This document shows, in pieces, positions 21,860 to 41,944 of a stretch of DNA of 64,000 nucleotides. Every line of letters begins with the position of its first letter. Positions within the stretch are counted from its first letter, which is position 1. The stretch covers positions 1,920,001 through 1,984,000 of the forward strand of contig CBDAOB010000005.1 of the NCBI GenBank assembly GCA_965197905.1. Direction: 5' to 3'. This DNA is from Candidatus Latescibacterota bacterium. Lineage in GTDB: Bacteria; Latescibacterota; UBA2968; UBA8231. Under the pieces are notes generated by a model. That model was not told the DNA's origin. It saw only the letters and a list, made by a program, of their open reading frames with translations, and searched no databases. Position numbers and translations under genes: made by a program.

Positions 21860-22975
21860 TCATTTCGGAGCGGGCTTTCCTTTCCGCGGCAACAAGCTCA
21901 ATCCGTGATCGAAGCCGCGCTGCAACACCTGCAGAATGCGAAGCGGATAGACTGCCGGGTAGAAAGCCCTCGGCAAGAATGGAAAAACCTGCAGCATCAC
22001 TTCGGGCGCTGGAAAAAAGGTTTCTCCAAGGAACCGAAGCTTCTTGGGGATCCCCGAAACGTTGAACGACCACAGTAGGTCGCCCCAGTTTCGCAGGTTG
22101 CGATCGGCAAAGGCGCTACGCAGGATTCGAGACTCCAGAGACCCGATCTCCTGGCGATCGATAAACGTGCACACTTCCCTTGGCAGATGACCCCACGAGG
22201 AAGGATCCAGAAAACGAATGGCATAGGCCAGCGGACGCTGTAAACGGTATCGCGAAGCCTTGTTTTGTAACCGGTCCCAATCGAGACCGGTAGACAGCAG
22301 GAGCAGCAAATCCACAAACCATGTACACCGGCTGAAGCCGTGGCGAAGCGCGTGAACGGCCGTGAACAGCGTCTCATCCTCTGCACACATGCGGAGAACG
22401 CAATCCTCGTCCACTTGCCCGGCCACTGCGTCTTTCCACACTTCCCGCAGATCCATCCAGCCGGCATACTGCCTGGATCTGATCCTGGAGCTATTCGACA
22501 GGTCCCGATGTAAATCGATGGTCAATCGCTCGTTTGAGAAGAGATCCGCATACCGCGGCTGGGGTGACAGACCCACGTCCATGAGCGCTTCCACCACCCT
22601 CTCATGATCCTCCGGTCTCACCAAGATATCGATATCGTCCATCGGGCGGCAACCGAGGTCGGGATATGCTCCAAGCAGGGAAGCACCCGGCAACACCATC
22701 ACCTCCAGCTCGCGGTCTCGCAGAACGCCGACGAATTCCATGAATTCGTGTAGCTGTACGACATTGGATTCCGCCGTTGCCCGGTAGTCTTCCATGAGCT
22801 CCACCCTGATCTCCGCAGGCAGATCGGAGGCTACCGTCTTGTGGTACATCAGCCCGCGCAGATCCTCAGCTCGAGCGCATGCCGCCAGACCGTTCCAGTA
22901 CTCCGCGTCCGGTTGGGTGGGCAGGCCCTCCGTGCCAGCGGCCAGCGCAAACAAGGTATGCAGCTCCCTATTCAT
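21860..22975 (-). CDS. uncharacterised nucleotidyltransferase family protein (NTP_transf_5-like)
   Basis: LPGASL...Y....CRPMDDIDILV, IDLH, WFVDL. Confidence 0.8.
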   Translation of the reverse strand: MNRELHTLFALAAGTEGLPTQPDAEYWNGLAACARAEDLRGLMYHKTVASDLPAEIRVELMEDYRATAESNVVQLHEFMEFVGVLRDRELEVMVLPGASLLGAYPDLGCRPMDDIDILVRPEDHERVVEALMDVGLSPQPRYADLFSNERLTIDLHRDLSNSSRIRSRQYAGWMDLREVWKDAVAGQVDEDCVLRMCAEDETLFTAVHALRHGFSRCTWFVDLLLLLSTGLDWDRLQNKASRYRLQRPLAYAIRFLDPSSWGHLPREVCTFIDRQEIGSLESRILRSAFADRNLRNWGDLLWSFNVSGIPKKLRFLGETFFPAPEVMLQVFPFLPRAFYPAVYPLRILQVLQRGFDHGLSLLPRKGKPAPK

Positions 22976-23249
22976 CCTCGAAGAGACCTGCCTCCGAAAA
23001 ATCGCGCAGAATCGCTTTCACGTCGTCGCGAGCCAGTTTCGTTTTCACCTCAAACGTACTAGACATGTGCTCGACAATCTCCGAGAAATCCTTGCCCTTT
23101 TGACACTCCTCGAATACGAAAGCGGCGGTCGCGTTCAGGTGGTGAACCTGACGGCTCTTTCCATCGTACAGAATTCCGCCATCGGCGAGCTTCCTGTAAG
23201 ATAGGCGATCCTTTAGCCTGAACCTAGTACTATTGTTGAATCGTCCCAA
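22968..23249 (-). CDS. PqqD-family peptide chaperone (RiPP recognition element fold)
   Basis: 93 aa; ILYD....VHHLNATAAFVFE...IVEHM..F.V....ARDDV..IL..FSEAGL. Confidence 0.85.
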   Translation of the reverse strand: MGRFNNSTRFRLKDRLSYRKLADGGILYDGKSRQVHHLNATAAFVFEECQKGKDFSEIVEHMSSTFEVKTKLARDDVKAILRDFSEAGLFEDE

Positions 23250-25402: not shown

Positions 25403-26932
25403 TCAGCGCAACCAGGCGCTGACGCCTTTGACAAGCTCGCTGAACCGGCGATCGCATTCCACCCCTTTCGCTGCATCGTCTTCCCGCTCACGGTGCAGCG
25501 GCAACACCCGGTCCCGGTACTCCTCTTCCACCTGACCTTGACAATCCTCCGATACCAGTGCCACCTGCAAAGCGCGAATCTCGCTGAAATTGATGTTCGG
25601 CGTTCCTACGCCGTTGATCACTGCCGCGATCTGTTGCAAACCAGGGTCCGTTTTGAAATAGAGCCACACGTAAAAGGGATTGACCCCCTCCAGCCGAACG
25701 ATGTCGACGAAACATCCCACGTTGGCGCGGGCGTCATCGCAGTAGACTGCCATGCGATTGCGGCCCAAGGTACCGACGCCGGATCTGGGAAGTAGCAGAT
25801 CCCGTTTCCTAACTCGGCTTCGCGGCGGATCGAATTCCGAATCCGGCAGGACGCACAGTGGATCGCTCAAGGATATGCCAGTTTCGGTTACGTTTCCCTG
25901 ATAGATCACTGGCACGCCACCGTCGTGGTGGCCGGGTTTTCGTCCGGTCACGATCGGTCCGTAGGTCAGATGAGTTATGAATTCCCCCAGGGGTAAAACC
26001 GGAAGCCTGCAATGATGCCGGTGTCTCCTCTTTTCGCGCCAGTACGCGGCGTCCCAGCGATCGCCGGCCAGCTCGCTCTCCGCGGATAGGTTCGCGTTCG
26101 AAATTCCCGCGACTGTCCTTCCACCGGCATGGACTCGCACCGCGCGGCTCGCCGCGTCCAGGTACTCGGCCAGCGACTCGTATCCCACTGCGTCGAAGAG
26201 CAGCGACGAAAGAGAATCCCGATCTGAATCGGTCTTGCTCAGAAACAATATCCCGGTCATCGCGTTGAGACCCGGCTTCCGGAAAGCCTCTTCCGGCAAA
26301 TCGATGACGGCACGTACCTGCGCTTGTGTCGTCACCCAATCCCGTACGGGCTGCAGGCGCTGATTGGTGAAGAATCCCTGGGGCAGAATCAGGGAGATGA
26401 TGCCGCCGGGTCTTGCCAGCTCTAGTGCCCGTTCCAGGAACAGGAGCTCCAACGGCATCTTCTCAGGTTTGCCGCCAACAAGCGTCTGCAACGGGGATGG
26501 GCGCTTCATATCGCCGGGGCTTATGGATCCACCGAGCCCACACGCCAGATGCGCCCCCAACCGGCCGAATGGCGGATTACCAATTACGACATCAAAGGAA
26601 CCGTTCCAGATCTTCTCCCCTTCATACTGCAGACCGTTGCCATGGTGAATCTGTGTGCCGGCACGGGACAAGGGCTGGTCGGTCCCCAACTCCAAGGTCA
26701 GCGCGCCGTCGAGCTCGACGCCATGCAGGTCAATCGGTTCGATCGTTCGCGAATGTATTACAGCCCGTAAGAAGGCGCCGTCCCCTGCGGCTGGATCAAT
26801 CACCCGAATCCCGCGTTCGCGGCAGGTGTATTCTCGCACCGACTCCCACATGAACTCAGCGATCCTCGGCGGTGTAAAATATTGTGCCATCGCCGCTACG
26901 TTCGGTCGCGAAATGTCCCCTTCAGTTCGCAC
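25403..26932 (-). CDS. amino (N6-adenine-type) DNA methyltransferase with C-terminal target-recognition-like domain
   Basis: QYFTPP, IDPAAGDGAFL (motif I), FDVVIGNPPF (motif IV); C-terminus resembles an HsdS half (LPLGEF, DLLLPRSG.GTLG, NPFYVWLYF, TPNINFSEI). Confidence 0.85.
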   Translation of the reverse strand: MRTEGDISRPNVAAMAQYFTPPRIAEFMWESVREYTCRERGIRVIDPAAGDGAFLRAVIHSRTIEPIDLHGVELDGALTLELGTDQPLSRAGTQIHHGNGLQYEGEKIWNGSFDVVIGNPPFGRLGAHLACGLGGSISPGDMKRPSPLQTLVGGKPEKMPLELLFLERALELARPGGIISLILPQGFFTNQRLQPVRDWVTTQAQVRAVIDLPEEAFRKPGLNAMTGILFLSKTDSDRDSLSSLLFDAVGYESLAEYLDAASRAVRVHAGGRTVAGISNANLSAESELAGDRWDAAYWREKRRHRHHCRLPVLPLGEFITHLTYGPIVTGRKPGHHDGGVPVIYQGNVTETGISLSDPLCVLPDSEFDPPRSRVRKRDLLLPRSGVGTLGRNRMAVYCDDARANVGCFVDIVRLEGVNPFYVWLYFKTDPGLQQIAAVINGVGTPNINFSEIRALQVALVSEDCQGQVEEEYRDRVLPLHREREDDAAKGVECDRRFSELVKGVSAWLR

Positions 26933-27098: not shown

Positions 27099-27506
27099 AT
27101 GTCCGAACTCAAAATGCCGACCATTAATCAGGTGGCGGTGAGTGGCCGCCTCGTACAAGACCCCGAGTTCCGTATCACGGAGCACGGGTCGGCGCGACTG
27201 AGCGCCCGCCTGGCCTGCAACAGGTCTTACCGCGACCGTGCCGGCCAGTGGCAGGAGGAAGCCTCTTTCTTCAATGTCGTCGTTTGGCAAAAACTGGCCG
27301 AGTATTATGCCGATCGATTGAAGAAAGGAAGTCCAATATTTGTCGTCGGCCGGCTTCGCAGCCACAGCTGGAGGGACGACGACGACACGCCGCACTCGAT
27401 TGTGGAGATTCAGGTTCGCAGTCTCCAACTCTTGGAAAAGAGCCAGAATACCGTCGATCCCGAAGAATCCTCGGAGACCGAAATGGAACTCGAACTGGCA
27501 AACTGA
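27099..27506 (+). CDS. ssb: single-stranded DNA-binding protein (lacks the DDDIPF-type tail)
   Basis: INQVAVSGRLVQDPEFR, FFNVVVW, LKKGSPIFVVGRLRSHSW. Confidence 0.92.
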   Translation: MSELKMPTINQVAVSGRLVQDPEFRITEHGSARLSARLACNRSYRDRAGQWQEEASFFNVVVWQKLAEYYADRLKKGSPIFVVGRLRSHSWRDDDDTPHSIVEIQVRSLQLLEKSQNTVDPEESSETEMELELAN

Positions 27507-27633: not shown

Positions 27634-27861
27634 ATGGCGTGGGCGAAAAGCCGATTTTTCCTTGAGAAAGTCCAACTTTTCAGCATAATTCTGTACCTGG
27701 TCTGCCTGGGTGGATACACGATTTCGGCCGTCGGCGAGTTTTATGACAGCATTCGCGCCGATATATTCGGTTTCACCTTCTTCTCCTTGTTCATCGCTTC
27801 CACGATTCTGCTGAGTCTCGAGAAAGATGGAGCTTCGGAAGAAAACCAGGAGGGTGATTAG
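27634..27861 (+). CDS. small two-TM hypothetical membrane protein
   Basis: ATG with AGAGGA RBS, two hydrophobic stretches, acidic tail; stop overlaps the first tRNA base. Confidence 0.55.
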   Translation: MAWAKSRFFLEKVQLFSIILYLVCLGGYTISAVGEFYDSIRADIFGFTFFSLFIASTILLSLEKDGASEENQEGD

Positions 27862-27936
27862 GGGCAGTAGCTCAGCTGGGAGAGCGCGGGCTTTGCAAGC
27901 CTGAGGTCGGCGGTTCGAACCCGCTCTGCTCCACCA
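27861..27936 (+). tRNA. tRNA-Ala (TGC)
   Basis: 76-nt cloverleaf GGGGCAG...CTGCTCCACCA, anticodon TGC, G3:U70, GGTTCGAAC T-loop, encoded CCA. Confidence 0.98.
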
Positions 27937-28179: not shown

Positions 28180-29079
28180 ATGTGTGGCATAGCGGGAATC
28201 TTCTATAAACAAGACAGATCTCGGGACGTTGGCGGAGCATTAATCGAGATGCTCTACGGATGCCAGCATCGCGGGCAAGATTCCACCGGATTCGCTCTTT
28301 ATGGTGAACCGAACCCCGACCAACTAGTGCTCCGTTTCCTTGTAGAAGGGGCGGAGGCGAACGGCGCGATCGATCGCATTCACCAGGTCCTCGAGAAATT
28401 TGGCGCCACCCTGGTGGAGGCAGATCGCATTGGCAGCAACTACCGCGCCCGGGTGATTTTCACCGGCGACATCCGGGAATTGGCCTACGCGTTGGAAGAG
28501 GCCGCAAAAGTAATCTCCGTCGGAAAATGCCTCGATATCGTCAAAGACGTAGGAGATGCACACGAGGTGGATCGGCAGTACCAAGTACGGGGGTCGTACG
28601 GATCCCATGGAATCGGCCACGTTCGCCTCGCGACTGAGTCGGACGTCAAACCCGAAGCAGCCCATCCCTTCTGGGCAACCGGCTTCGCCGATATCGCCAT
28701 CGTGCACAACGGTCAGATAACCAACTATTGGAAGATGCGCCGGGCCCTGGAAAGCAAGGGGTACGAATTCCGCACCGAGAACGACAGCGAGCTGATTGCC
28801 GTTTTCCTGGCGGAGCGATTAAATCGAGGCATCGACCTCCACGACGTTCTGGCACAGAGTATCGAGGAACTCGATGGCACCTTCTCGTTTCTGGTGTCGA
28901 CCGACACAGAGCTTGGTTACGCCAAGGACAACCTCGCGGCAAAACCGATGGTCATGTTGGAGACGGACAGTCTCGTCGCCATAGCTTCCGAAGAGGTCTC
29001 GTTGAATCGGCTCTTCCCCGGTGAAACCATAGATACCACCGAACCTCTACCGGGCACCTACTTCACATGGTCCAAATAG
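28180..29079 (+). CDS. class II glutamine amidotransferase (GlxB/MgsA-like)
   Basis: N-terminal MCGIAG, HRGQDSTG, GHVRLATES, AHPF, VHNGQITNY, NDSELIA. Confidence 0.9.
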   Translation: MCGIAGIFYKQDRSRDVGGALIEMLYGCQHRGQDSTGFALYGEPNPDQLVLRFLVEGAEANGAIDRIHQVLEKFGATLVEADRIGSNYRARVIFTGDIRELAYALEEAAKVISVGKCLDIVKDVGDAHEVDRQYQVRGSYGSHGIGHVRLATESDVKPEAAHPFWATGFADIAIVHNGQITNYWKMRRALESKGYEFRTENDSELIAVFLAERLNRGIDLHDVLAQSIEELDGTFSFLVSTDTELGYAKDNLAAKPMVMLETDSLVAIASEEVSLNRLFPGETIDTTEPLPGTYFTWSK

Positions 29080-31043
29080 ATCTGGCTCGACTTTCCATCA
29101 CCGAGGCCAACCGCCAGATGAAAGCGATGGCCGCGGAGGGACAGGATATCGAGGTGCTGAATCCGGATGCTCGCCATCACATCGGGGTTGGGTTGGTCGC
29201 GCCCGTCACCGTGCGAGTGCGCGGATCTGCGGGCTATTTCTGCGCCGGGTTGGCCGATGGCGCACGCTTCGAGGTCGAAGGCAATGCAGGATGGGGCCTG
29301 GCGGACAACATGTACAACGGCACCGTGTCGGTCAGCGGGAATGCCAGCACCATAGCCGGAGTGGCGATTCGCGGCGCCGAAGTGGTCGTGAAGGGAAACC
29401 TGGGATCTCGAGCCGGGCAGGTCATGAAGGCGGGCACCCTCTGTTGCGCCGGAAACGCCAGCTTCATGGCTGGGTATATGATGTACGGGGGGCGCATCAT
29501 TGTCCTGGGTGACTCCGGCGAAAAGGTTGGTGAGGATATGATCGGCGGGGAGATTTTCGTTGGCGGCAAGCTGCAATCGCTGGGATCGGATGCCCGAGAG
29601 TTGGATGTTTCAGGCGCCGAGTCCTCCGCGGTTGCAGAATTCCTCGACAGACATCGCGTCTCCCATTCCGGCCGCTTCAGGAAGGTGGGCAACGCCGGCA
29701 CTAAACTGCGCTACAAAGGCGAGGAAGAGAGGATTCGGCCGATACCCTTTTTCAACTTTTCGGGTGATGCGCCGTACTGGAATCGCAAGGTTCAAGAAGA
29801 CATCTTCGTCAAATCCAAGATTGGCCGCTACCGAATCCGCGGGTACGGGGCGGCGCGGCGGCTTCCGCATTTTTCGGACATCGGCTTCAGGTCAGATCTC
29901 TCCGCAACCGTCGACAATGAGAACCTGCTGGAGAAAGTCAAGCTCGACCTGCGGATCGGCGACAAGAGCGGTGCAGACCCATTGGAGCTGAGCATGCCGG
30001 TCATGGTCGCGGCCATGAGCTACGGAGCCCTTAGCAAGTCGACCAAGATCGCCTTGTCGATCGCTTCTCGCCTCTCCGGGATATCGGAAAACACCGGTGA
30101 AGGCGGATTGACGGACGAGCAGCGACAAGAGGCCGACCAGGTGATCATGCAATGCCTCGGCGGCCGACTGGGGTGGAACATTCACGACATGCTGCGCGCC
30201 AACGCACTGGAAATATACATCTCCCAGGGAGCAAAACCGGGCTTCGGGGGCCAGCTGCTGGCGAAGAAGGTCACTCGCGAGCTTGCCGAGATTCGCGGCA
30301 TTCCAGAAGGGATCGATCTGAAATCTCCTTCTCGCCACCCGGACATCCTCGGCGCCGACGATCTGGTTATCAAGATACAGGAGTTGAGAGAAGCGACCGA
30401 CTACCGCCTTCCGGTCAGCCTGAAGCTCGGCGCCGGTCGCGTTCGGGACGATATCAAGATCGCACTTAAGTCGACGGCGGATTTCGTCGAGCTGGACGGG
30501 TCCCAAGGTTCGACGGGAGCTTCCAGCTCCGAGGTGCTGGAGTACGTCGGCATACCCACCCTGGCCGCTATTCAGGAAGCGATGGATGCGTTGGCGGAGA
30601 TCGGGCGGTCGGGCGAATTGCCCGTCGTTTTGATGGGTGGTATCAAAGATGGCGTCGACGTCGCCAAAGCCCTGGCGCTGGGTGCCTCCGCCACAGCCAT
30701 GGGAACGGCGCTGATAATCGCCGGCGGATGTATATCCTGCATGCAGTGTCATGCGGGAACCTGTGTCGTGGGGATCGCCACCCAGGACGCGATCCACGAG
30801 AGCAGGTACGACGTTCCGGCAGAGGCCAGAAACATCCACCACTTTCTCGAACATGTGCGCTGGCAACTGGCATCTATAGTTCATCGGCTCGGTTATGATG
30901 ACTTTCGTCAGCTTTCCAGGAGCGATCTCGTGGCCCTGACACCGGAAGCCGCGGCGATAACACGGTTGCCCTACGCACCGGAGTATCGCCGTCTGCCCAC
31001 CCCCTTCTCCCAGGTCAAGCCGCTGCTAGCCGAGAGGTTCTGA
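29067..31043 (+). CDS. fusion of a GXGXG beta-helix (GlxC-like) and an FMN-binding glutamate synthase domain (GlxD-like)
   Basis: Gly-rich repeats in the first ~200 aa; AMSYGALS, NTGEGG, SQGAKPGFGG, CISCMQCHAGTCVVGIATQ. Confidence 0.88.
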   Translation: MVQIDLARLSITEANRQMKAMAAEGQDIEVLNPDARHHIGVGLVAPVTVRVRGSAGYFCAGLADGARFEVEGNAGWGLADNMYNGTVSVSGNASTIAGVAIRGAEVVVKGNLGSRAGQVMKAGTLCCAGNASFMAGYMMYGGRIIVLGDSGEKVGEDMIGGEIFVGGKLQSLGSDARELDVSGAESSAVAEFLDRHRVSHSGRFRKVGNAGTKLRYKGEEERIRPIPFFNFSGDAPYWNRKVQEDIFVKSKIGRYRIRGYGAARRLPHFSDIGFRSDLSATVDNENLLEKVKLDLRIGDKSGADPLELSMPVMVAAMSYGALSKSTKIALSIASRLSGISENTGEGGLTDEQRQEADQVIMQCLGGRLGWNIHDMLRANALEIYISQGAKPGFGGQLLAKKVTRELAEIRGIPEGIDLKSPSRHPDILGADDLVIKIQELREATDYRLPVSLKLGAGRVRDDIKIALKSTADFVELDGSQGSTGASSSEVLEYVGIPTLAAIQEAMDALAEIGRSGELPVVLMGGIKDGVDVAKALALGASATAMGTALIIAGGCISCMQCHAGTCVVGIATQDAIHESRYDVPAEARNIHHFLEHVRWQLASIVHRLGYDDFRQLSRSDLVALTPEAAAITRLPYAPEYRRLPTPFSQVKPLLAERF

Positions 31044-33556
31044 TGACCAGCAGCTGCTCGCTCGACGAGACCGTTCCGCTGGAGCTCGTCGACGATACCA
31101 ACGACACCCACTTCGTGCCGGCTCCCTGCCAGGTTGCGTGCCCCATTGGCACCGACGCTCCCTCCTACATCGGCTACATCTGGGAGGGAAACCTGGAAGG
31201 AGCATTGGAAGCGATCAGTGCAACCAATCCGTTCAGCTCTATCTGCGGACGAGTGTGCGACGCCCCCTGCGAGCCGGCCTGCCGTCGGGCCGATAGCGAC
31301 GGCCCGATCGCCATCCGCAATCTGAAGCGGTATGTAATGGACCGTTTGGGACCCTCCTTCTCCCTGCCACTCGCCGCAGTTTCCAGAAAACAGTCGGTCG
31401 CCATCGTCGGCGGAGGCCCATCCGGACTAACTGCCGCCCAGGATTTGGCCGAAGCCGGCTACTCGGTCGACCTCTACGAGATGTCGGACCGCCTGGGGGG
31501 CATGATGGTATGGGGCATTCCAGCCTTCCGGCTGCCCCCTGCCGTAATTCAAGAGGATATCGATCGAATCCTGAACCATTGCCCCGGCATTGACGTTCAC
31601 CTCGAGCACCGCCTGGGCCACGAGGTAACGCTGGAGGCACTAAAGTCGACCCACGACGCAGTGATCCTTGCCATAGGCGCCTGGTGGGGCAAAAAGATGG
31701 GACTGCCGGGAGAAGACAGCGAACTGGTAGTGGACGGTGTGAGTTTTCTCCGTCGCGTCAACGGGGGCGAGCGGCCCGAGATGCCCCCCAGTGTGCTCGT
31801 AATCGGCGGCGGCGACGTGGCCATGGACGCCTGCCGCGTCGTCAAACGGCTTCCCGGCTGCCGCGAGGTAACGGTCGTCTACCGCCGCGGACCCCACGAG
31901 ATTCCGGCACGCCGGGACGAGCTTGAAGGCGCGATCAAAGAATCGGTTGCGTTCGTCTACAATACCCAACCGGTGGAATTCGTAACCTCCCGCGCTGGCG
32001 TAAAGGTGCGATGCCTGCGGACGGAGTTGGGCGAACCGGATCCTGATGGACGGCGGCGACCGCTGCCGATTCCAGGTTCCGATCACGAAATCGAATGCGG
32101 TCTGGTGATTGCTGCCGTCGGCCAACGTACCGAATGTGTCGAATTGGAACGCACCGGCTTGATGACGGGCGACCAGATTAAGGCAAACGCTGTTACAACC
32201 TCTACTTCGAGCGCCAAGGTCTTTGCTACCGGCGACGGAGCGTTTGGTCCATCCACGTTGGTAAACGCGATGTACCTAGGTCATCGAACTGCCTATTACG
32301 TCAAGTCCTTCTTGGAGGGCCACAGGGACCCCCTTCCTTATGCGACCCCGTACCGGACGAGGCGAGTCCCCGTTTCCCAGGATCCACGCTGGGAGATCAT
32401 CAACCGCATCGACCAGCCGTTCCACGGAACTGGAAGCTCGCCGATCGATTTTCCCGAAATCGAATCCACCTACACGCCAGAACAAGCTAAGGACGAAGCA
32501 GCTCGATGTTATCGGTGCGACGTGGAAAACGGCACTAGCGAGTACTCTGTCATCGCCCGTGAAGACATCTTTATCATGACCCGCACCGGCGATGCCCAAC
32601 ACTCGGTGCGTGAGTCGATGCTGCAGCGTCGTCTACGCAGCGAAGAAAACCCTTTCCATCCGGAGCGACCTCCAACCCTGGACGATATCCATATTCTTCC
32701 CGCGAATCTCTCGCGTCTCGTCATTGATCCGTATCGTGAAGACTGCCGCATGCGAACGATCATCGGATCGGAAATGCGACTCGAGATCCCGTTTTTAGTC
32801 GGCGGATTTGACCAGGCCCCAGAACAGATCAAAAACGGACTTGGCCAGGCGCTCGCAACGAACGGGTGCGCCTATCTGGGCGAGGGGCCGCTGCTCCCAG
32901 GGATACCGTGGCTTCAACTGCTGACACCTGGCAGCGATCCCCGCGACGATGCTGCCGGCATCGTCGGCAACCCGGAGCAGATCAGTGCTCGGCGACGTCC
33001 CGAAGGACAGTTGCTGGGAATGTGGGTCCACGTCGGCGACGTGCCAGCAGCCGTTGCTACGGCGCTCGAGGCGAAGTGCGATTTCTTGCTGCTGGACGCA
33101 ACATCCGGCATCTCAACCCCTTGGCCAGAACTCAGCTCGACTTCCGACCTGGAGGTCTTACGCGATGCCATCACCCTCCTTCGCAAGGCGAAGAGAGAGG
33201 AGGAGATCGACGTCCTCTATTTCGGCGGGATCCGTTCAGGAACCGACGCCGCAAAAGCCATCGCCCTGGGCAGCGAGGCGGTTGTCCTGGGCGTCGCGGT
33301 CGCCCTGGCGATGGGGGGAACGCTCACCTCCGCAGGAGAATGTCTGTTTCCAACCGCGAATGCCATCGACCAGTATGCCGAACACGCCTCGAACTTTCTC
33401 CAGGCCTGCGCCGGCGAAGCTTCGATGATGGCACGAAGTACCGGAAAGACGAAGGTGCACAGCCTCGAACCGGAAGATCTGAAAGCCATCACGATTGCTA
33501 CTGCAACCGCGGCCGGCATTCCTCTCATCGGAACCCGGTCGGCACCTTCCGATTGA
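31043..33556 (+). CDS. GltD-like Fe-S/FAD/NAD(P)H oxidoreductase fused to a degenerate glutamate synthase FMN barrel
   Basis: PCQVACP, CGRVCDAPCEPAC, GGGPSG, GGGDVAMD, EAARCYRC; C-terminal GGIRSGTDAAKAIALG and LEPEDL. Confidence 0.85.
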   Translation: MTSSCSLDETVPLELVDDTNDTHFVPAPCQVACPIGTDAPSYIGYIWEGNLEGALEAISATNPFSSICGRVCDAPCEPACRRADSDGPIAIRNLKRYVMDRLGPSFSLPLAAVSRKQSVAIVGGGPSGLTAAQDLAEAGYSVDLYEMSDRLGGMMVWGIPAFRLPPAVIQEDIDRILNHCPGIDVHLEHRLGHEVTLEALKSTHDAVILAIGAWWGKKMGLPGEDSELVVDGVSFLRRVNGGERPEMPPSVLVIGGGDVAMDACRVVKRLPGCREVTVVYRRGPHEIPARRDELEGAIKESVAFVYNTQPVEFVTSRAGVKVRCLRTELGEPDPDGRRRPLPIPGSDHEIECGLVIAAVGQRTECVELERTGLMTGDQIKANAVTTSTSSAKVFATGDGAFGPSTLVNAMYLGHRTAYYVKSFLEGHRDPLPYATPYRTRRVPVSQDPRWEIINRIDQPFHGTGSSPIDFPEIESTYTPEQAKDEAARCYRCDVENGTSEYSVIAREDIFIMTRTGDAQHSVRESMLQRRLRSEENPFHPERPPTLDDIHILPANLSRLVIDPYREDCRMRTIIGSEMRLEIPFLVGGFDQAPEQIKNGLGQALATNGCAYLGEGPLLPGIPWLQLLTPGSDPRDDAAGIVGNPEQISARRRPEGQLLGMWVHVGDVPAAVATALEAKCDFLLLDATSGISTPWPELSSTSDLEVLRDAITLLRKAKREEEIDVLYFGGIRSGTDAAKAIALGSEAVVLGVAVALAMGGTLTSAGECLFPTANAIDQYAEHASNFLQACAGEASMMARSTGKTKVHSLEPEDLKAITIATATAAGIPLIGTRSAPSD

Positions 33557-39737: not shown

Positions 39738-40913
39738 TTAAATCAAGAGCACAACCGACTGTGCGGCAATACCTTCGCGCCTACCGACGAATCCGAGTCC
39801 CTCAGTGGTTGTGGCTTTTACGGAAACCAATTCCCTGGGTACGTTGAGGGTCGCTGCCAGCGTTTCCTCCATGTCGGAAATATAGGCTGCAAGCTTGGGC
39901 TGCTCCGCCATGACGGTGGCATCGAGATTGGCGATTCGCAGCCCCCGTTCCACGAGGCGCTGGCGGACGCGTGCGAGCAATATAAGACTGGAAATCCCCG
40001 AGAACTTCGCATCAGTGTCTGGGAAAAGGCGACCGATATCCCCTAGGCTGGCGGCTCCAAGGAGCGCATCGATAATCGCGTGGGTCAGCACGTCTGCGTC
40101 GGAGTGACCTGCTAGACCCTCGTCCCAAGGGATATGAACCCCGCCCAACATCAGTTTCCTGCCGCCAGCGAAACGGTGAACATCATATCCGGTGCCAACT
40201 CGCAAGCCGTTGGGCATCAACGATTTATTATCCTTTTGCTGCATCGACCATTCCGCCCATTGCATGTCCGCCTGTGTAGTGATTTTGATGTTTGTGTCCT
40301 CCCCTTGGACAATCCGCACCGGGACCCCCAGTTGCTCTACCAGCATCGACTCGTCGGTGGGGATAAACAGGGGGTCAGGAATAGACCTGGCCTCGACCAG
40401 AAGCTGCCGCCGGAATCCCTGCGGGGTTTGGGCACACCAGAGGGTTTCACGATTCGGAGTTGAGATGACGAAGCTGCTATCAACGACCTTTATGGTCTCT
40501 TTCGCCGGGGTCGCGGCGATCGCGGCGCCATGGGCAACGGTTTCCATCAGAACACGTTTGATGAGATCTGCCGAAACGAACGGTCGTGCCCCATCGTGAA
40601 CGAGTATGTACTCCGCTCCCTCATCGGTGGCTTCGAGGCCGGCTGCCACCGACTGGTGCCGTTCCTCACCCGCCGCCACGATCCTCCCCAGCTTGGGGAA
40701 TTCACTTCCGAACCGCTGTTGACAATACTCTATATCTGTTTCTGGCACAACGAGTATGATGCGGTCTATAAAGGCGGATTTTGAGAACCTATCCAGGGTG
40801 TGCCAAAGCATAGATCGGCCGGCAAGAGGGACGAACTGCTTGGGCTGGGTACCCCCTGCGCGAAGGCCTTTCCCGCCGGCGGCGATAATTGCGGTTGCTG
40901 TTGGATCGCCCAT
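39738..40913 (-). CDS. ispDF: bifunctional IspD/IspF
   Basis: AAGGKGLR..PKQF, VHDGARP, AQTPQGF, IKITT; then GYDVH, GHSDADV, DIGRLFPD, KATTTEGLG. Confidence 0.95.
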   Translation of the reverse strand: MGDPTATAIIAAGGKGLRAGGTQPKQFVPLAGRSMLWHTLDRFSKSAFIDRIILVVPETDIEYCQQRFGSEFPKLGRIVAAGEERHQSVAAGLEATDEGAEYILVHDGARPFVSADLIKRVLMETVAHGAAIAATPAKETIKVVDSSFVISTPNRETLWCAQTPQGFRRQLLVEARSIPDPLFIPTDESMLVEQLGVPVRIVQGEDTNIKITTQADMQWAEWSMQQKDNKSLMPNGLRVGTGYDVHRFAGGRKLMLGGVHIPWDEGLAGHSDADVLTHAIIDALLGAASLGDIGRLFPDTDAKFSGISSLILLARVRQRLVERGLRIANLDATVMAEQPKLAAYISDMEETLAATLNVPRELVSVKATTTEGLGFVGRREGIAAQSVVLLI

Positions 40914-40918
40914 AACAG

Positions 40919-41944
40919 TCAGAGGATTAACATGGCGTCGCCATAGCTGTAGAATCTGTACTCGCTTTTCACGGCTATGTGGTATGCCTCGAGCACGCAA
41001 TGGGTGCCGGCGAATGCCGCCACCATCATCAGCAACGTTGAGCAGGGCAAGTGGAAATTAGTCACGAGGGCGTCAACCGCGCGAAAACGGTAGGGTGGAT
41101 GGATAAGCTTATCCGTCCAACCGGTGCCGCCAGATACTCGCCCCGACTCCTCCGCCCCGGTTTCCAGGACGCGGACCACGGTCGTACCTACGGCGACGAT
41201 GCGACCTCTTTCCTCTCTGCATTGGTTCAAATCGCCGGCCGTGCCTGCGTCGATCTCGAAGTATTCGGGTTCCAGCACGTGCTGTCGCGGATCCGAGACC
41301 CTTACTGGCTCGAAGCTACCTGGTCCAACGTGCAGGAGCACGGAAGCCAAATTGACCCCTGATTCCACAAGCCGCTGGAGAAGACCCTCGGTAAAATGCA
41401 GCCCGGCCGTGGGTGCCGCAATCGCCCCTGGGTCCTTGGCGTAGACCGTTTGGTAGCGGCTCTTGTCCTGTTCGTCAGGGCTTCGACGGATGTAGGGGGG
41501 CAGGGGCACTTCCCCAATCTTACAAAGGGAAGCGGCCATATCGTCACGACCGAACCTGACGATATAGCGGCCGGCATCGGTCCTTTCGAGGACCTCCCCC
41601 GAGACCTCATCGGCGAAAGAGAGTTGAGCACCGGCGATCAGTCTCTTGGCGGGACGTCCCATAGCCAACCACTCTCCGTCTCCTCGATCACGGATCAACA
41701 GGAGTTCGATCTTGCCCCCGGTGGCGATCGATCGACCCCGCAGGCGAGCTGGAATCACACGGGTTCGATTCAGCACCAGGGTATCACCCGAACTGAGAAA
41801 TTGACCGATCTCGGAAAATTGGTGATGGTCGATAGACCCGGTGGAACGGTTGACGACCATCAGCCTAGACTCGTCCCTCCCCGCTGGCGGGTACTGGGCG
41901 ATCAAACGCTCGGGCAGATCGTAGCGGAACTCATCTATGTGCAT
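40919..41944 (-). CDS. queA: SAM:tRNA ribosyltransferase-isomerase
   Basis: LPERLIAQYP, PLPPYI, AAPTAGLHF, TNFHLP, YRFYSYGDAM. Confidence 0.98.
   Translation of the reverse strand: MHIDEFRYDLPERLIAQYPPAGRDESRLMVVNRSTGSIDHHQFSEIGQFLSSGDTLVLNRTRVIPARLRGRSIATGGKIELLLIRDRGDGEWLAMGRPAKRLIAGAQLSFADEVSGEVLERTDAGRYIVRFGRDDMAASLCKIGEVPLPPYIRRSPDEQDKSRYQTVYAKDPGAIAAPTAGLHFTEGLLQRLVESGVNLASVLLHVGPGSFEPVRVSDPRQHVLEPEYFEIDAGTAGDLNQCREERGRIVAVGTTVVRVLETGAEESGRVSGGTGWTDKLIHPPYRFRAVDALVTNFHLPCSTLLMMVAAFAGTHCVLEAYHIAVKSEYRFYSYGDAMLIL

Follow-up and report, generated by a model that had tools for sequence, protein, structure and literature searches.

Gene Organization of the Locus

We analysed a window of 64,000 nucleotides from a Candidatus Latescibacterota bacterium (contig CBDAOB010000005.1, positions 1,920,001 to 1,984,000), in which three overlapping open reading frames (ORFs) at 28180-33556 encode a rearranged set of glutamate synthase-like modules. 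Coordinates follow the numbering of the window and refer to the plus strand unless stated otherwise. The first gene (28180..29079) encodes a 299-residue class II glutamine amidotransferase (GATase) of the MgsA/GlxB type, with the catalytic cysteine directly after the start methionine and a match to GATase_6 (E 4e-20). Domain matches identify the second product (29067..31043; 658 residues) as a fusion resembling MgsB joined to MgsC, in which a GXGXG beta-helix precedes a flavin mononucleotide (FMN) barrel that we call the live barrel, and the third (31043..33556; 837 residues) as a GltD-like reductase with iron-sulfur (Fe-S), flavin adenine dinucleotide (FAD) and NAD(P)H modules, fused to a degenerate or "dead" barrel. 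The first two ORFs overlap by 13 bp and the last two by 1 bp (TGA/ATG). An initial annotation made from the DNA letters had placed three coupled genes here and named their products as a class II GATase, a GXGXG-FMN protein with a cysteine cluster, and a GltD-like protein with a C-terminal extension; the ORFs and the domain matches bear out both statements.

This layout, which we refer to as the variant, is not a product of chance, since the reductase tail was matched by 673 proteins at E≤0.001 (7999 scored) and, of 565 candidate stretches in GTDB genomes, 531 passed confirmation. A frameshift or assembly artefact as the source of the fusions was ruled out because both recur across phyla. Our cross-phylum survey took the best 80 of the 531 confirmed stretches; 65 of these loci hold the whole trio, and the remainder are interrupted by contig ends. 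The closest named relative (91% identity) is labelled Candidatus Latescibacterota. A tRNA-Ala(TGC) gene lies directly upstream of the operon (27861-27936) and is syntenic in three relatives. Recent mobile insertion at this tRNA was rejected, given that the neighbourhood and the tRNA recur in three of six compared loci (L024, L025, L029); that the GC content matches the genome also weighs against it. Plasmids searched for the dead barrel gave no match, and scans for promoters (2 vs 1.8) and terminators (7 vs 5.2) were at chance level.

The GltD-like Reductase

The reductase ORF contains Fer4_20 (residues 27-101) and Pyr_redox_2 (residues 118-411) domains, followed by about 337 extra C-terminal residues. 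Its eight cysteines (29, 33, 68, 72, 76, 80, 489 and 492) are invariant in 104 of 104 sequences. The protein carries ligands for two Fe-S clusters and an FAD/NAD(P)H module, and it scores below the gltD cut-offs. Judging from the position of RCxxC, the GltD-like module (31121..32518) appears to be circularly permuted, with the segment that opens GltD placed after the FAD/NAD(P)H domains. Residues 26-51 of the genome's own GltD align to residues 469-494 of the reductase, an alignment that is weak on its own (E 0.035). The best NCBIfam matches, over residues 27-496, are the GltD-like oxidoreductases PRK12771 (E 3e-114) and PRK12814 (E 3e-112), both below cut-off; their profiles do not cover the C-terminal barrel. 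The module has GxGxxA and YRR motifs, which suggest NADPH, and NADPH rather than NADH would be the electron donor.

The Amidotransferase and the Live Barrel

In a quick tree, from which two rows without the start motif were left out, the GATase fell among MgsA-type GATases, far from the GATase domain of GltB and with no resolved sister. It grouped loosely (82-88) with a paralogous set that adjoins a different glutamine synthetase (GS)-like protein.

The GXGXG domain covers residues 11-167 of the second protein (29097..29567; PF01493, E 1.2e-15), and the live barrel residues 297-610 (29955..30896; Glu_synthase, PF01645, E 1.9e-91, together with the motif test described below). The live barrel has kept MSYG at residue 317, NTGEGG at 342, QGAKPG (GAKPG at 388), the loop-4 and DGxxG motifs, and CxxCxxCxxxxC at 555-566; it lacks the N-terminal SRxxxxxYRE motif. 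The cysteine motif (30729..30764), for a [3Fe-4S] or [4Fe-4S] cluster, is found in 70 of 70 live barrels and in 82 of 82 single-chain fusions. Loop 4 (HPDILGADD, 30336..30362) has the G-x-D of MgsC-type barrels, not the S-I-E of GltB, a signature observed in this analysis and not taken from a paper. It reads GAD in all 70 live barrels; of the 28 stand-alone barrels 24 have GPD, of the 88 single-chain two-barrel forms 87 have GGD, and the genome's own GltB and the archaeal-type protein L178 have SIE. The live barrel is about 40% identical to MgsC-type proteins of annotated plasmids.

The Dead Barrel

The 337-residue tail of the reductase (residues 500-837; 32540..33553) has kept eight strands and lost the catalytic motifs. 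It shares 28% identity with the FMN barrel of the neighbouring gene (E 5e-16), with a profile-profile probability of 98.5%. An AlphaFold2 model from an 80-sequence alignment had a mean predicted local distance difference test score (pLDDT) of 88.3 and a predicted template modelling score of 0.86. In this model, DSSP assigns eight barrel strands, and the helices after strands 2 and 3 are predicted to be missing. The best structural matches are FMN-linked triosephosphate isomerase (TIM) barrels, among them flavocytochrome b2 (Z 22.2, root-mean-square deviation 3.1, 249 residues aligned). Against GltB the model aligns to residues 785-1189 of the FMN domain (Z 18.8, deviation 3.7, 277 aligned). 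The region thus models as a TIM barrel of the FMN-oxidoreductase type, and alignment and motif scoring agree with the earlier description of a tail that resembles the FMN barrel and lacks NTGEGG, GAKPG and the cysteine cluster.

Nine motif profiles, trained on 28 stand-alone barrels and on no variant barrel, were scored on 70 live and 80 dead barrels. Five catalytic motifs (MSFG, TGDGG, GAKPG, loop-4 and DGxxGGT) and the cysteine motif scored in every live barrel (70 of 70) and in none of the 80 dead ones, and the N-terminal motif (IDPYRE) in 0 of 70 live and 80 of 80 dead barrels. The phosphate motif scores in both barrels (80 of 80 dead), as does the C-terminal motif, which scores higher in the dead barrel (median 51 vs 28 bits). 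By these scores, the motifs of what would have been one ancestral MgsC-like barrel are cleanly divided between the two. The N-terminal motif LPANLSRLVIDPYRE (32696..32740), present in the dead barrel only, is invariant from A554 to R565 in 104 of 104 sequences; it aligns with SRYPLEGYRE of MgsC and, via the stand-alone GltB2, with QVTNPPIDPIRE of the GltB central domain. In the phosphate-binding motif FGGIRSGTD (33221..33247), G728, G729, R731, S732, G733, T734 and D735 are invariant.

Two related sequences were noted. P0187 is a half-decayed stand-alone barrel with the cysteine cluster kept and GAKPG lost, and is sister to the dead barrels in a quick tree. In genome G104, a partial second copy of the 3' end of the dead barrel lies about 5 kb downstream of the operon (L183:13420-13737).

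Proposed Barrel Pairing and the GltB Central Domain

The dead barrel occurs in other arrangements as well. Among 79 metagenome loci it stands alone in seven: in six with no GltD match it follows an unfused live barrel (L189, L192, L197, L200, L201 and L212, of which L192 and L197 are short), and in L195 it follows a GXGXG-FMN fusion. In three metagenome loci it is fused to a more distant GltD type. The gmaS gene follows in L189, L195, L201, L190 and L198. Of 120 listed proteins, 88 combine the two barrels in a single chain; GltD is missing from 84 of these and present in 4. Sulfate reducers of the genera Desulfococcus, Desulfosarcina, Desulfobacter, Desulfospira and Desulforhabdus have GltD-less single chains of about 1020 residues in the order GXGXG, live barrel, dead barrel (P0129, P0274-P0362); cultured carriers are Desulfococcus multivorans, Desulfosarcina variabilis and Desulfobacter curvatus.

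Because the dead barrel can stand alone or in the chain of the live barrel, in both cases without GltD, its partner would be the live barrel. The initial annotation had the inactive barrel docking the reductase; the stand-alone and live-fused forms without GltD (7 of 79 loci and 84 of 120 listed proteins) rule this out as its primary role. Since unfused, GltD-less forms branch first within the live-barrel clade, the barrel was likely duplicated before the reductase was fused to it. Mutual information between the barrels in 82 fusions gave a top z of 7.4, below three shuffled controls (8.2-8.7).

In the 2021 review PMC8097209, the GltB central domain is described as a truncated barrel that may have arisen by duplication or independently, and the ammonia tunnel as lined by the FMN and central domains; PMC5011417 describes the central domain as a duplicate that lost three beta/alpha units. 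By analogy, the dead barrel is likely a structural half that pairs with the live barrel as the central domain does within GltB. The likeness to the central domain put forward in the initial annotation holds as such an analogy and does not extend to identity of the domains: the dead barrel, unlike the central domain, has kept eight strands and the phosphate motif, it has no PF04898 match at E≤10, and its structure is nearer the FMN domain, so that membership in the central-domain family was ruled out. The stand-alone barrels L178 and P0244 do match PF04898. The match of L178 (E 4.9e-15) includes the stretch VTNPSIDPLRE, which lines up with SRYPLEGYRE in MgsC and with SRLVIDPYRE in the dead barrel (profile alignment E 0.049). 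From this chain of alignments, the non-catalytic copy would have kept the N-terminal motif in both the variant and GltB. The link between dead barrel and central domain may be seen as such a chain of homologies, with weak direct similarity.

It is also possible, though rather unlikely in our estimate, that the dead barrel is a regulatory or electron-relay domain that binds FMN or another phosphorylated ligand and is not purely structural. The invariant GGxRxGTD phosphate motif, the retention of all eight strands, and the cysteine cluster of its half-decayed relative P0187 are in keeping with such a role, but the MS(Y/F)G, TG(D/E)GG, GAKPG, loop-4 and cysteine motifs are absent from all 80 dead barrels and conservation peaks in the N-terminal motif, which lies outside the flavin site. 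The structural and the ligand or relay roles are not exclusive and can coexist.

Association with gmaS and the mgd Genes

The genome has a canonical GltB (1530 residues) and GltD on another contig (C4:1.85 Mb), a point the initial annotation had marked for checking. Its GmaS scores above the TIGR03105 cut-off (592 vs 470 bits), and the gmaS gene follows four mgdABCD/soxBDAG-like genes, with no mgsABC beside them. The earlier statement that no gmaS or mgd genes are adjacent is true of the locus itself, but both lie about 370 kb away on the same contig, and in relatives they are next door. The trio is the sole Mgs-type set found in the genome. We compared the GmaS with nine residues of the Rhodovulum enzyme (PDB 7CQL; PMC7948447), and eight are kept: Lys30, Ala48, Tyr147, Asp177, Glu186, Asn188, Trp300 and Arg312. 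Searches of the genome for the methylamine dehydrogenase heavy chain and for a neighbouring flavoenzyme of the old yellow enzyme family, both run without a positive control, gave no match. Two further Glu_synthase-type genes of this genome have no GATase partner, a Rieske-Glu_synthase fusion (L021:7122-8807) and a gene of the FMN-binding glutamate synthase family in two pieces (L022:5698-7292).

We searched 168 genomes of the phylum for the dead barrel, and the 21 that carry it all fall in the window's family. Every one of these 21 belongs to the 89 genomes with a GmaS match, and the 79 genomes lacking such a match have no variant; these counts involve kin and many incomplete genomes, and we attach no P value to them. 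A live-barrel search matched 91 of the 168 genomes. Nineteen of the matches are variant genomes (67-100% identity, one barrel match each), and 72 are genomes with a stand-alone barrel of 39-44% identity, none of which has the dead barrel and two of which (G013 and G033) are not Mgs-type. The 2 fragmentary genomes among the 21 gave no live-barrel match. One genus has six genomes with the variant and four with ordinary mgsABC adjoining gmaS. The orthologue of the genome's own GmaS occurs in mgsABC-mgdABCD-gmaS clusters of variant-free genomes (L162, L164, L167, L168), and variant genomes have mgd-gmaS without mgs (L170-L173). Within the phylum, the variant stands in for the mgsABC that would accompany an mgdABCD-gmaS cluster.

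Of the 70 cross-phylum loci with room for it, 23 have gmaS within 1.2 kb downstream, and 27 of all 80 have it anywhere; it is present in 44 of the 79 metagenome loci, many of them near-identical. We chose 50 further variant genomes for lacking an adjacent gmaS (four repeat phylum genomes), and 43 of these have a protein over the TIGR03105 cut-off, versus 1 of 14 controls. GltB with its central domain is kept in 21 of 21 phylum and 46 of 50 further variant genomes. Recurrent neighbours are mgdABCD, an Amt-family transporter (17 loci), an XRE-cupin regulator (18), FolD (8) and Fhs (4). In other phyla, GS-like proteins encoded immediately downstream of variants have all nine of the GmaS residues checked.

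A redox-neutral exchange mechanism has been described for N-methylglutamate synthase. We compared 20 stand-alone barrel loci; variant genomes supplied 17, and variant-free genomes of the phylum the other 3. In 10 variant genomes with an ordinary mgsABC-gmaS cluster, MgsC lacks the cysteines of the Fe-S motif in 8 and keeps them in 2; seven of the eight are close kin, and six carry Aestuariivirga-type titles or near-identical proteins. The cultured Aestuariivirga litoralis has the full trio together with ordinary mgsABC-gmaS. The cysteine pattern suggests a division between a redox-neutral exchange enzyme (the cysteine-less MgsC) and a reductive one (the variant). Across the MgsC proteins beside gmaS in L296, L297, L300-L305, L311-L313, L104, L165, L174 and L175, many have lost all cysteines of the Fe-S motif and others keep them, which suggests that the single name MgsC covers two chemistries.

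A further glxBCD-like set, accompanied by a divergent GS-like protein of its own (28-30% identity to GmaS, under the TIGR03105 cut-off), makes up a separate clade and was seen in phylum relatives (L161, L166, L180, L181, L185) and in L041, L042, L068, L179 and L182. In several genomes it adjoins a trimethylamine N-oxide demethylase (the L161 copy is over the NF053776 cut-off). This set may serve a glutamate-mediated route for dimethylamine or another amine.

Proposed Function and Alternatives

The trio is probably kin to MgsABC and a reductive, NADPH-driven variant of N-methylglutamate synthase. We infer the substrate and the direction from the modules and from the co-occurrence with gmaS and mgd genes, which also support the enzyme proposed in the initial annotation, an NAD(P)H-coupled one acting on 2-oxoglutarate and an amine, possibly methylamine; methylamine is here the likely amine. 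GmaS, encoded elsewhere in the genome, would form gamma-glutamylmethylamide, which the GATase subunit would hydrolyse. The methylamine released would pass to the live barrel and add to 2-oxoglutarate, and the imine would be reduced by FMNH2. Electrons would travel from NAD(P)H through the FAD and the two Fe-S clusters of the GltD-like module to the barrel's own cluster. The net reaction would be gamma-glutamylmethylamide + 2-oxoglutarate + NAD(P)H giving N-methylglutamate + glutamate, and MgdABCD would then oxidise N-methylglutamate to glutamate and a folate-bound one-carbon unit. The dead barrel would pair with the live barrel and supply in trans the structural motif that the latter has lost, as the central domain does within GltB, and its later fusion to the reductase would tether the electron donor.

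Several observations weigh against this reading. In a 35-row tree, the live barrels form a clade of their own (100/100) outside the MgsC-type clade (100/99); the phylogeny places them nearest to that clade, as its sister, with weak support (85/63), but not nested in it. Two long branches meet near the root of this tree, and an earlier quick tree did not resolve the sister relation. The context suggests that the trio acts like MgsABC, yet, as the live barrel forms a separate clade and the sister of the GATase is not resolved, we do not class it as an MgsABC member. All 21 variant cases of the phylum come from one family and are not independent. Outside the phylum, a stand-alone barrel of 39-45% identity coexists with the variant in 35 of 50 and 18 of 28 genomes (two of the 80 loci are omitted from these searches), so that general replacement of mgsABC by the variant is ruled out, and in 9 of the 50 the stand-alone barrel is beside gmaS with the variant elsewhere. 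The genome's own GmaS has Ala in place of Gln175 in the amine pocket, and for that reason another amine is possible. The single-chain forms of sulfate reducers may be unconnected with methylamine. Directly compared, the dead barrel and the GltB central domain are weakly similar (E 0.005, probability 7%, motif score 0.1 bit). The Thr-Asn of the N-terminal motif and the S-I-E loop would gate the GltB tunnel, a point absent from the papers searched; if it is right, the smaller G-x-D loop would suit methylamine. An argument from a Met479 equivalent was set aside as ambiguous.

The same reductive chemistry and architecture might serve an amine other than methylamine, such as ethylamine as its gamma-glutamyl amide, or one that depends on the branch. 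We think this unlikely. The Ala at position 175 would fit it, as would the coexistence of the variant with ordinary mgsABC-gmaS in at least 10 genomes, the loose grouping of the GATase with the set beside a different GS-like protein, and the several amines that GmaS accepts according to PMC7948447; however, the downstream GS-like proteins of other phyla retain all nine residues, the variant occupies the mgsABC slot in the phylum, and the recurring mgdABCD, Amt transporter, FolD and Fhs point to one-carbon metabolism. Less probable still is a role in ammonium assimilation, as a second glutamate synthase (GOGAT) that is glutamine-dependent and rearranged. Every GOGAT module is present, the cysteine motif matches that of archaeal-type GltB2, some members are named "glutamate synthase" in their sources, and we count the gene context of the sulfate-reducer forms as leaving room for such a function. 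Retention of GltB in nearly all variant genomes, the absence of the variant from the GmaS-less genomes, a loop 4 of G-x-D rather than S-I-E, and a neighbouring GmaS without the ammonium-binding Asp of GS argue against it.

An enzyme running mainly in the oxidative direction or as a nitrogen-release step, with glutamate or N-methylglutamate giving up electrons at FMN that the GltD-like module passes on to NAD(P)+, seems very improbable. GltD-like modules do serve several unrelated enzymes (PMC8097209), but MgdABCD already oxidises N-methylglutamate, and the intact Cys1 amidotransferase and the ATP-consuming GmaS fit the GS/GOGAT-like direction that PMC6237917 proposes for gamma-glutamylmethylamide synthetase and N-methylglutamate synthase. 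PMC6237917 also states that the redox cofactor of N-methylglutamate synthase is unidentified.

If the trio is a reductive N-methylglutamate synthase, its use of NADPH would supply the electron donor still missing from a common methylamine pathway. With an enzyme that carries its own NAD(P)H module, the proposed GS/GOGAT-like step could be followed directly by spectrophotometry, and N-methylglutamate production might also benefit. Because genomes with the variant would be scored as lacking mgsABC, methylamine use is likely under-called in marine and other uncultured lineages, with 531 confirmed GTDB stretches.

Possible Origin of the Two Barrels

A broader view, which we hold tentatively and with somewhat less than even confidence, sees in the family an N-methylglutamate synthase that is self-sufficient and driven by NAD(P)H, and at the same time a living replay of the origin of the GltB central domain. 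In an MgsC or GltB2 homodimer, one barrel would lend its N-terminal motif to the other, and duplication would have turned the homodimer into a heterodimer of live and dead barrels. Every stage would be extant: four separate genes, single-chain two-barrel forms of cultured sulfate reducers, reductase-fused forms and full fusions of 1500 residues. Transcripts of mgsC in Methyloversatilis universalis on methylamine are about 2.4-2.7 times those of mgsA and mgsB, as reported in PMC5023235, a faint hint at an MgsC dimer. If this view is true, ordinary MgsC would be an obligate homodimer, and "MgsABC" would span reductive enzymes with the Fe-S cysteines and redox-neutral exchange enzymes without them. 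The variant would be a second and better-preserved case of barrel duplication of the central-domain type, with intermediates.

Other Features of the Window

At 21860-23249 on the minus strand, a PqqD-family protein is encoded beside an NTP_transf_5 nucleotidyltransferase and a polysaccharide export protein. An N-6 DNA methylase of the Eco57I-like type (25403-26932, minus strand) is beside a gene of the single-strand-binding (SSB) family (27099-27506), and an IspD-IspF fusion is encoded at 39738-41000, also on the minus strand.

Comparison with Known Systems

No description of a fused or two-barrel architecture, and no characterised family with it, turned up in the literature searched, whose coverage was incomplete and did not extend to supplementary gene tables.

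With MgsABC (GlxBCD, EC 2.1.1.21; Methyloversatilis universalis, Methylobacterium extorquens and SAR11) the variant shares the gene order GATase, GXGXG, FMN barrel, as well as the stand-alone Cys1 GATase, the G-x-D loop 4 and the association with gmaS and mgdABCD. MgsABC has three separate subunits, a single barrel and no reductase; SAR11 glxBCD is described as a three-gene operon in PMC3160333. The variant, in contrast, fuses MgsB and MgsC, has a second barrel with the motifs divided between the two, adds the GltD-like module, and has a cysteine motif without insert. In these comparisons, the characterised MgsABC proteins were represented by annotated homologues that plasmids encode beside glnT (L104, L105).

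The archaeal-type GltB1/GltB2/GltB3 proteins, so labelled from their domain content, resemble the variant in their split genes, in CxxCxxCxxxxC, and in the N-terminal motif of the stand-alone barrel (L178, P0244). Unlike the variant, GltB2 has one barrel with all motifs and usually N-terminal ferredoxin domains, and L178 has S-I-E and no gmaS in its locus. GltB/GltD (EC 1.4.1.13; Azospirillum brasilense 1EA0 and 6S6S) is built from the same parts as the variant, namely GATase, FMN barrel, degenerate barrel, GXGXG and GltD-like reductase (parts as listed in PMC8097209). GltB is a single GATase-central-FMN-GXGXG chain, and the variant scores 157.9 bits against NF008730, whose cut-off is 1047. 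The two systems differ in the order and split of the parts, in the permutation of the reductase, and in loop 4, which is GAD in the variant and SIE in GltB.

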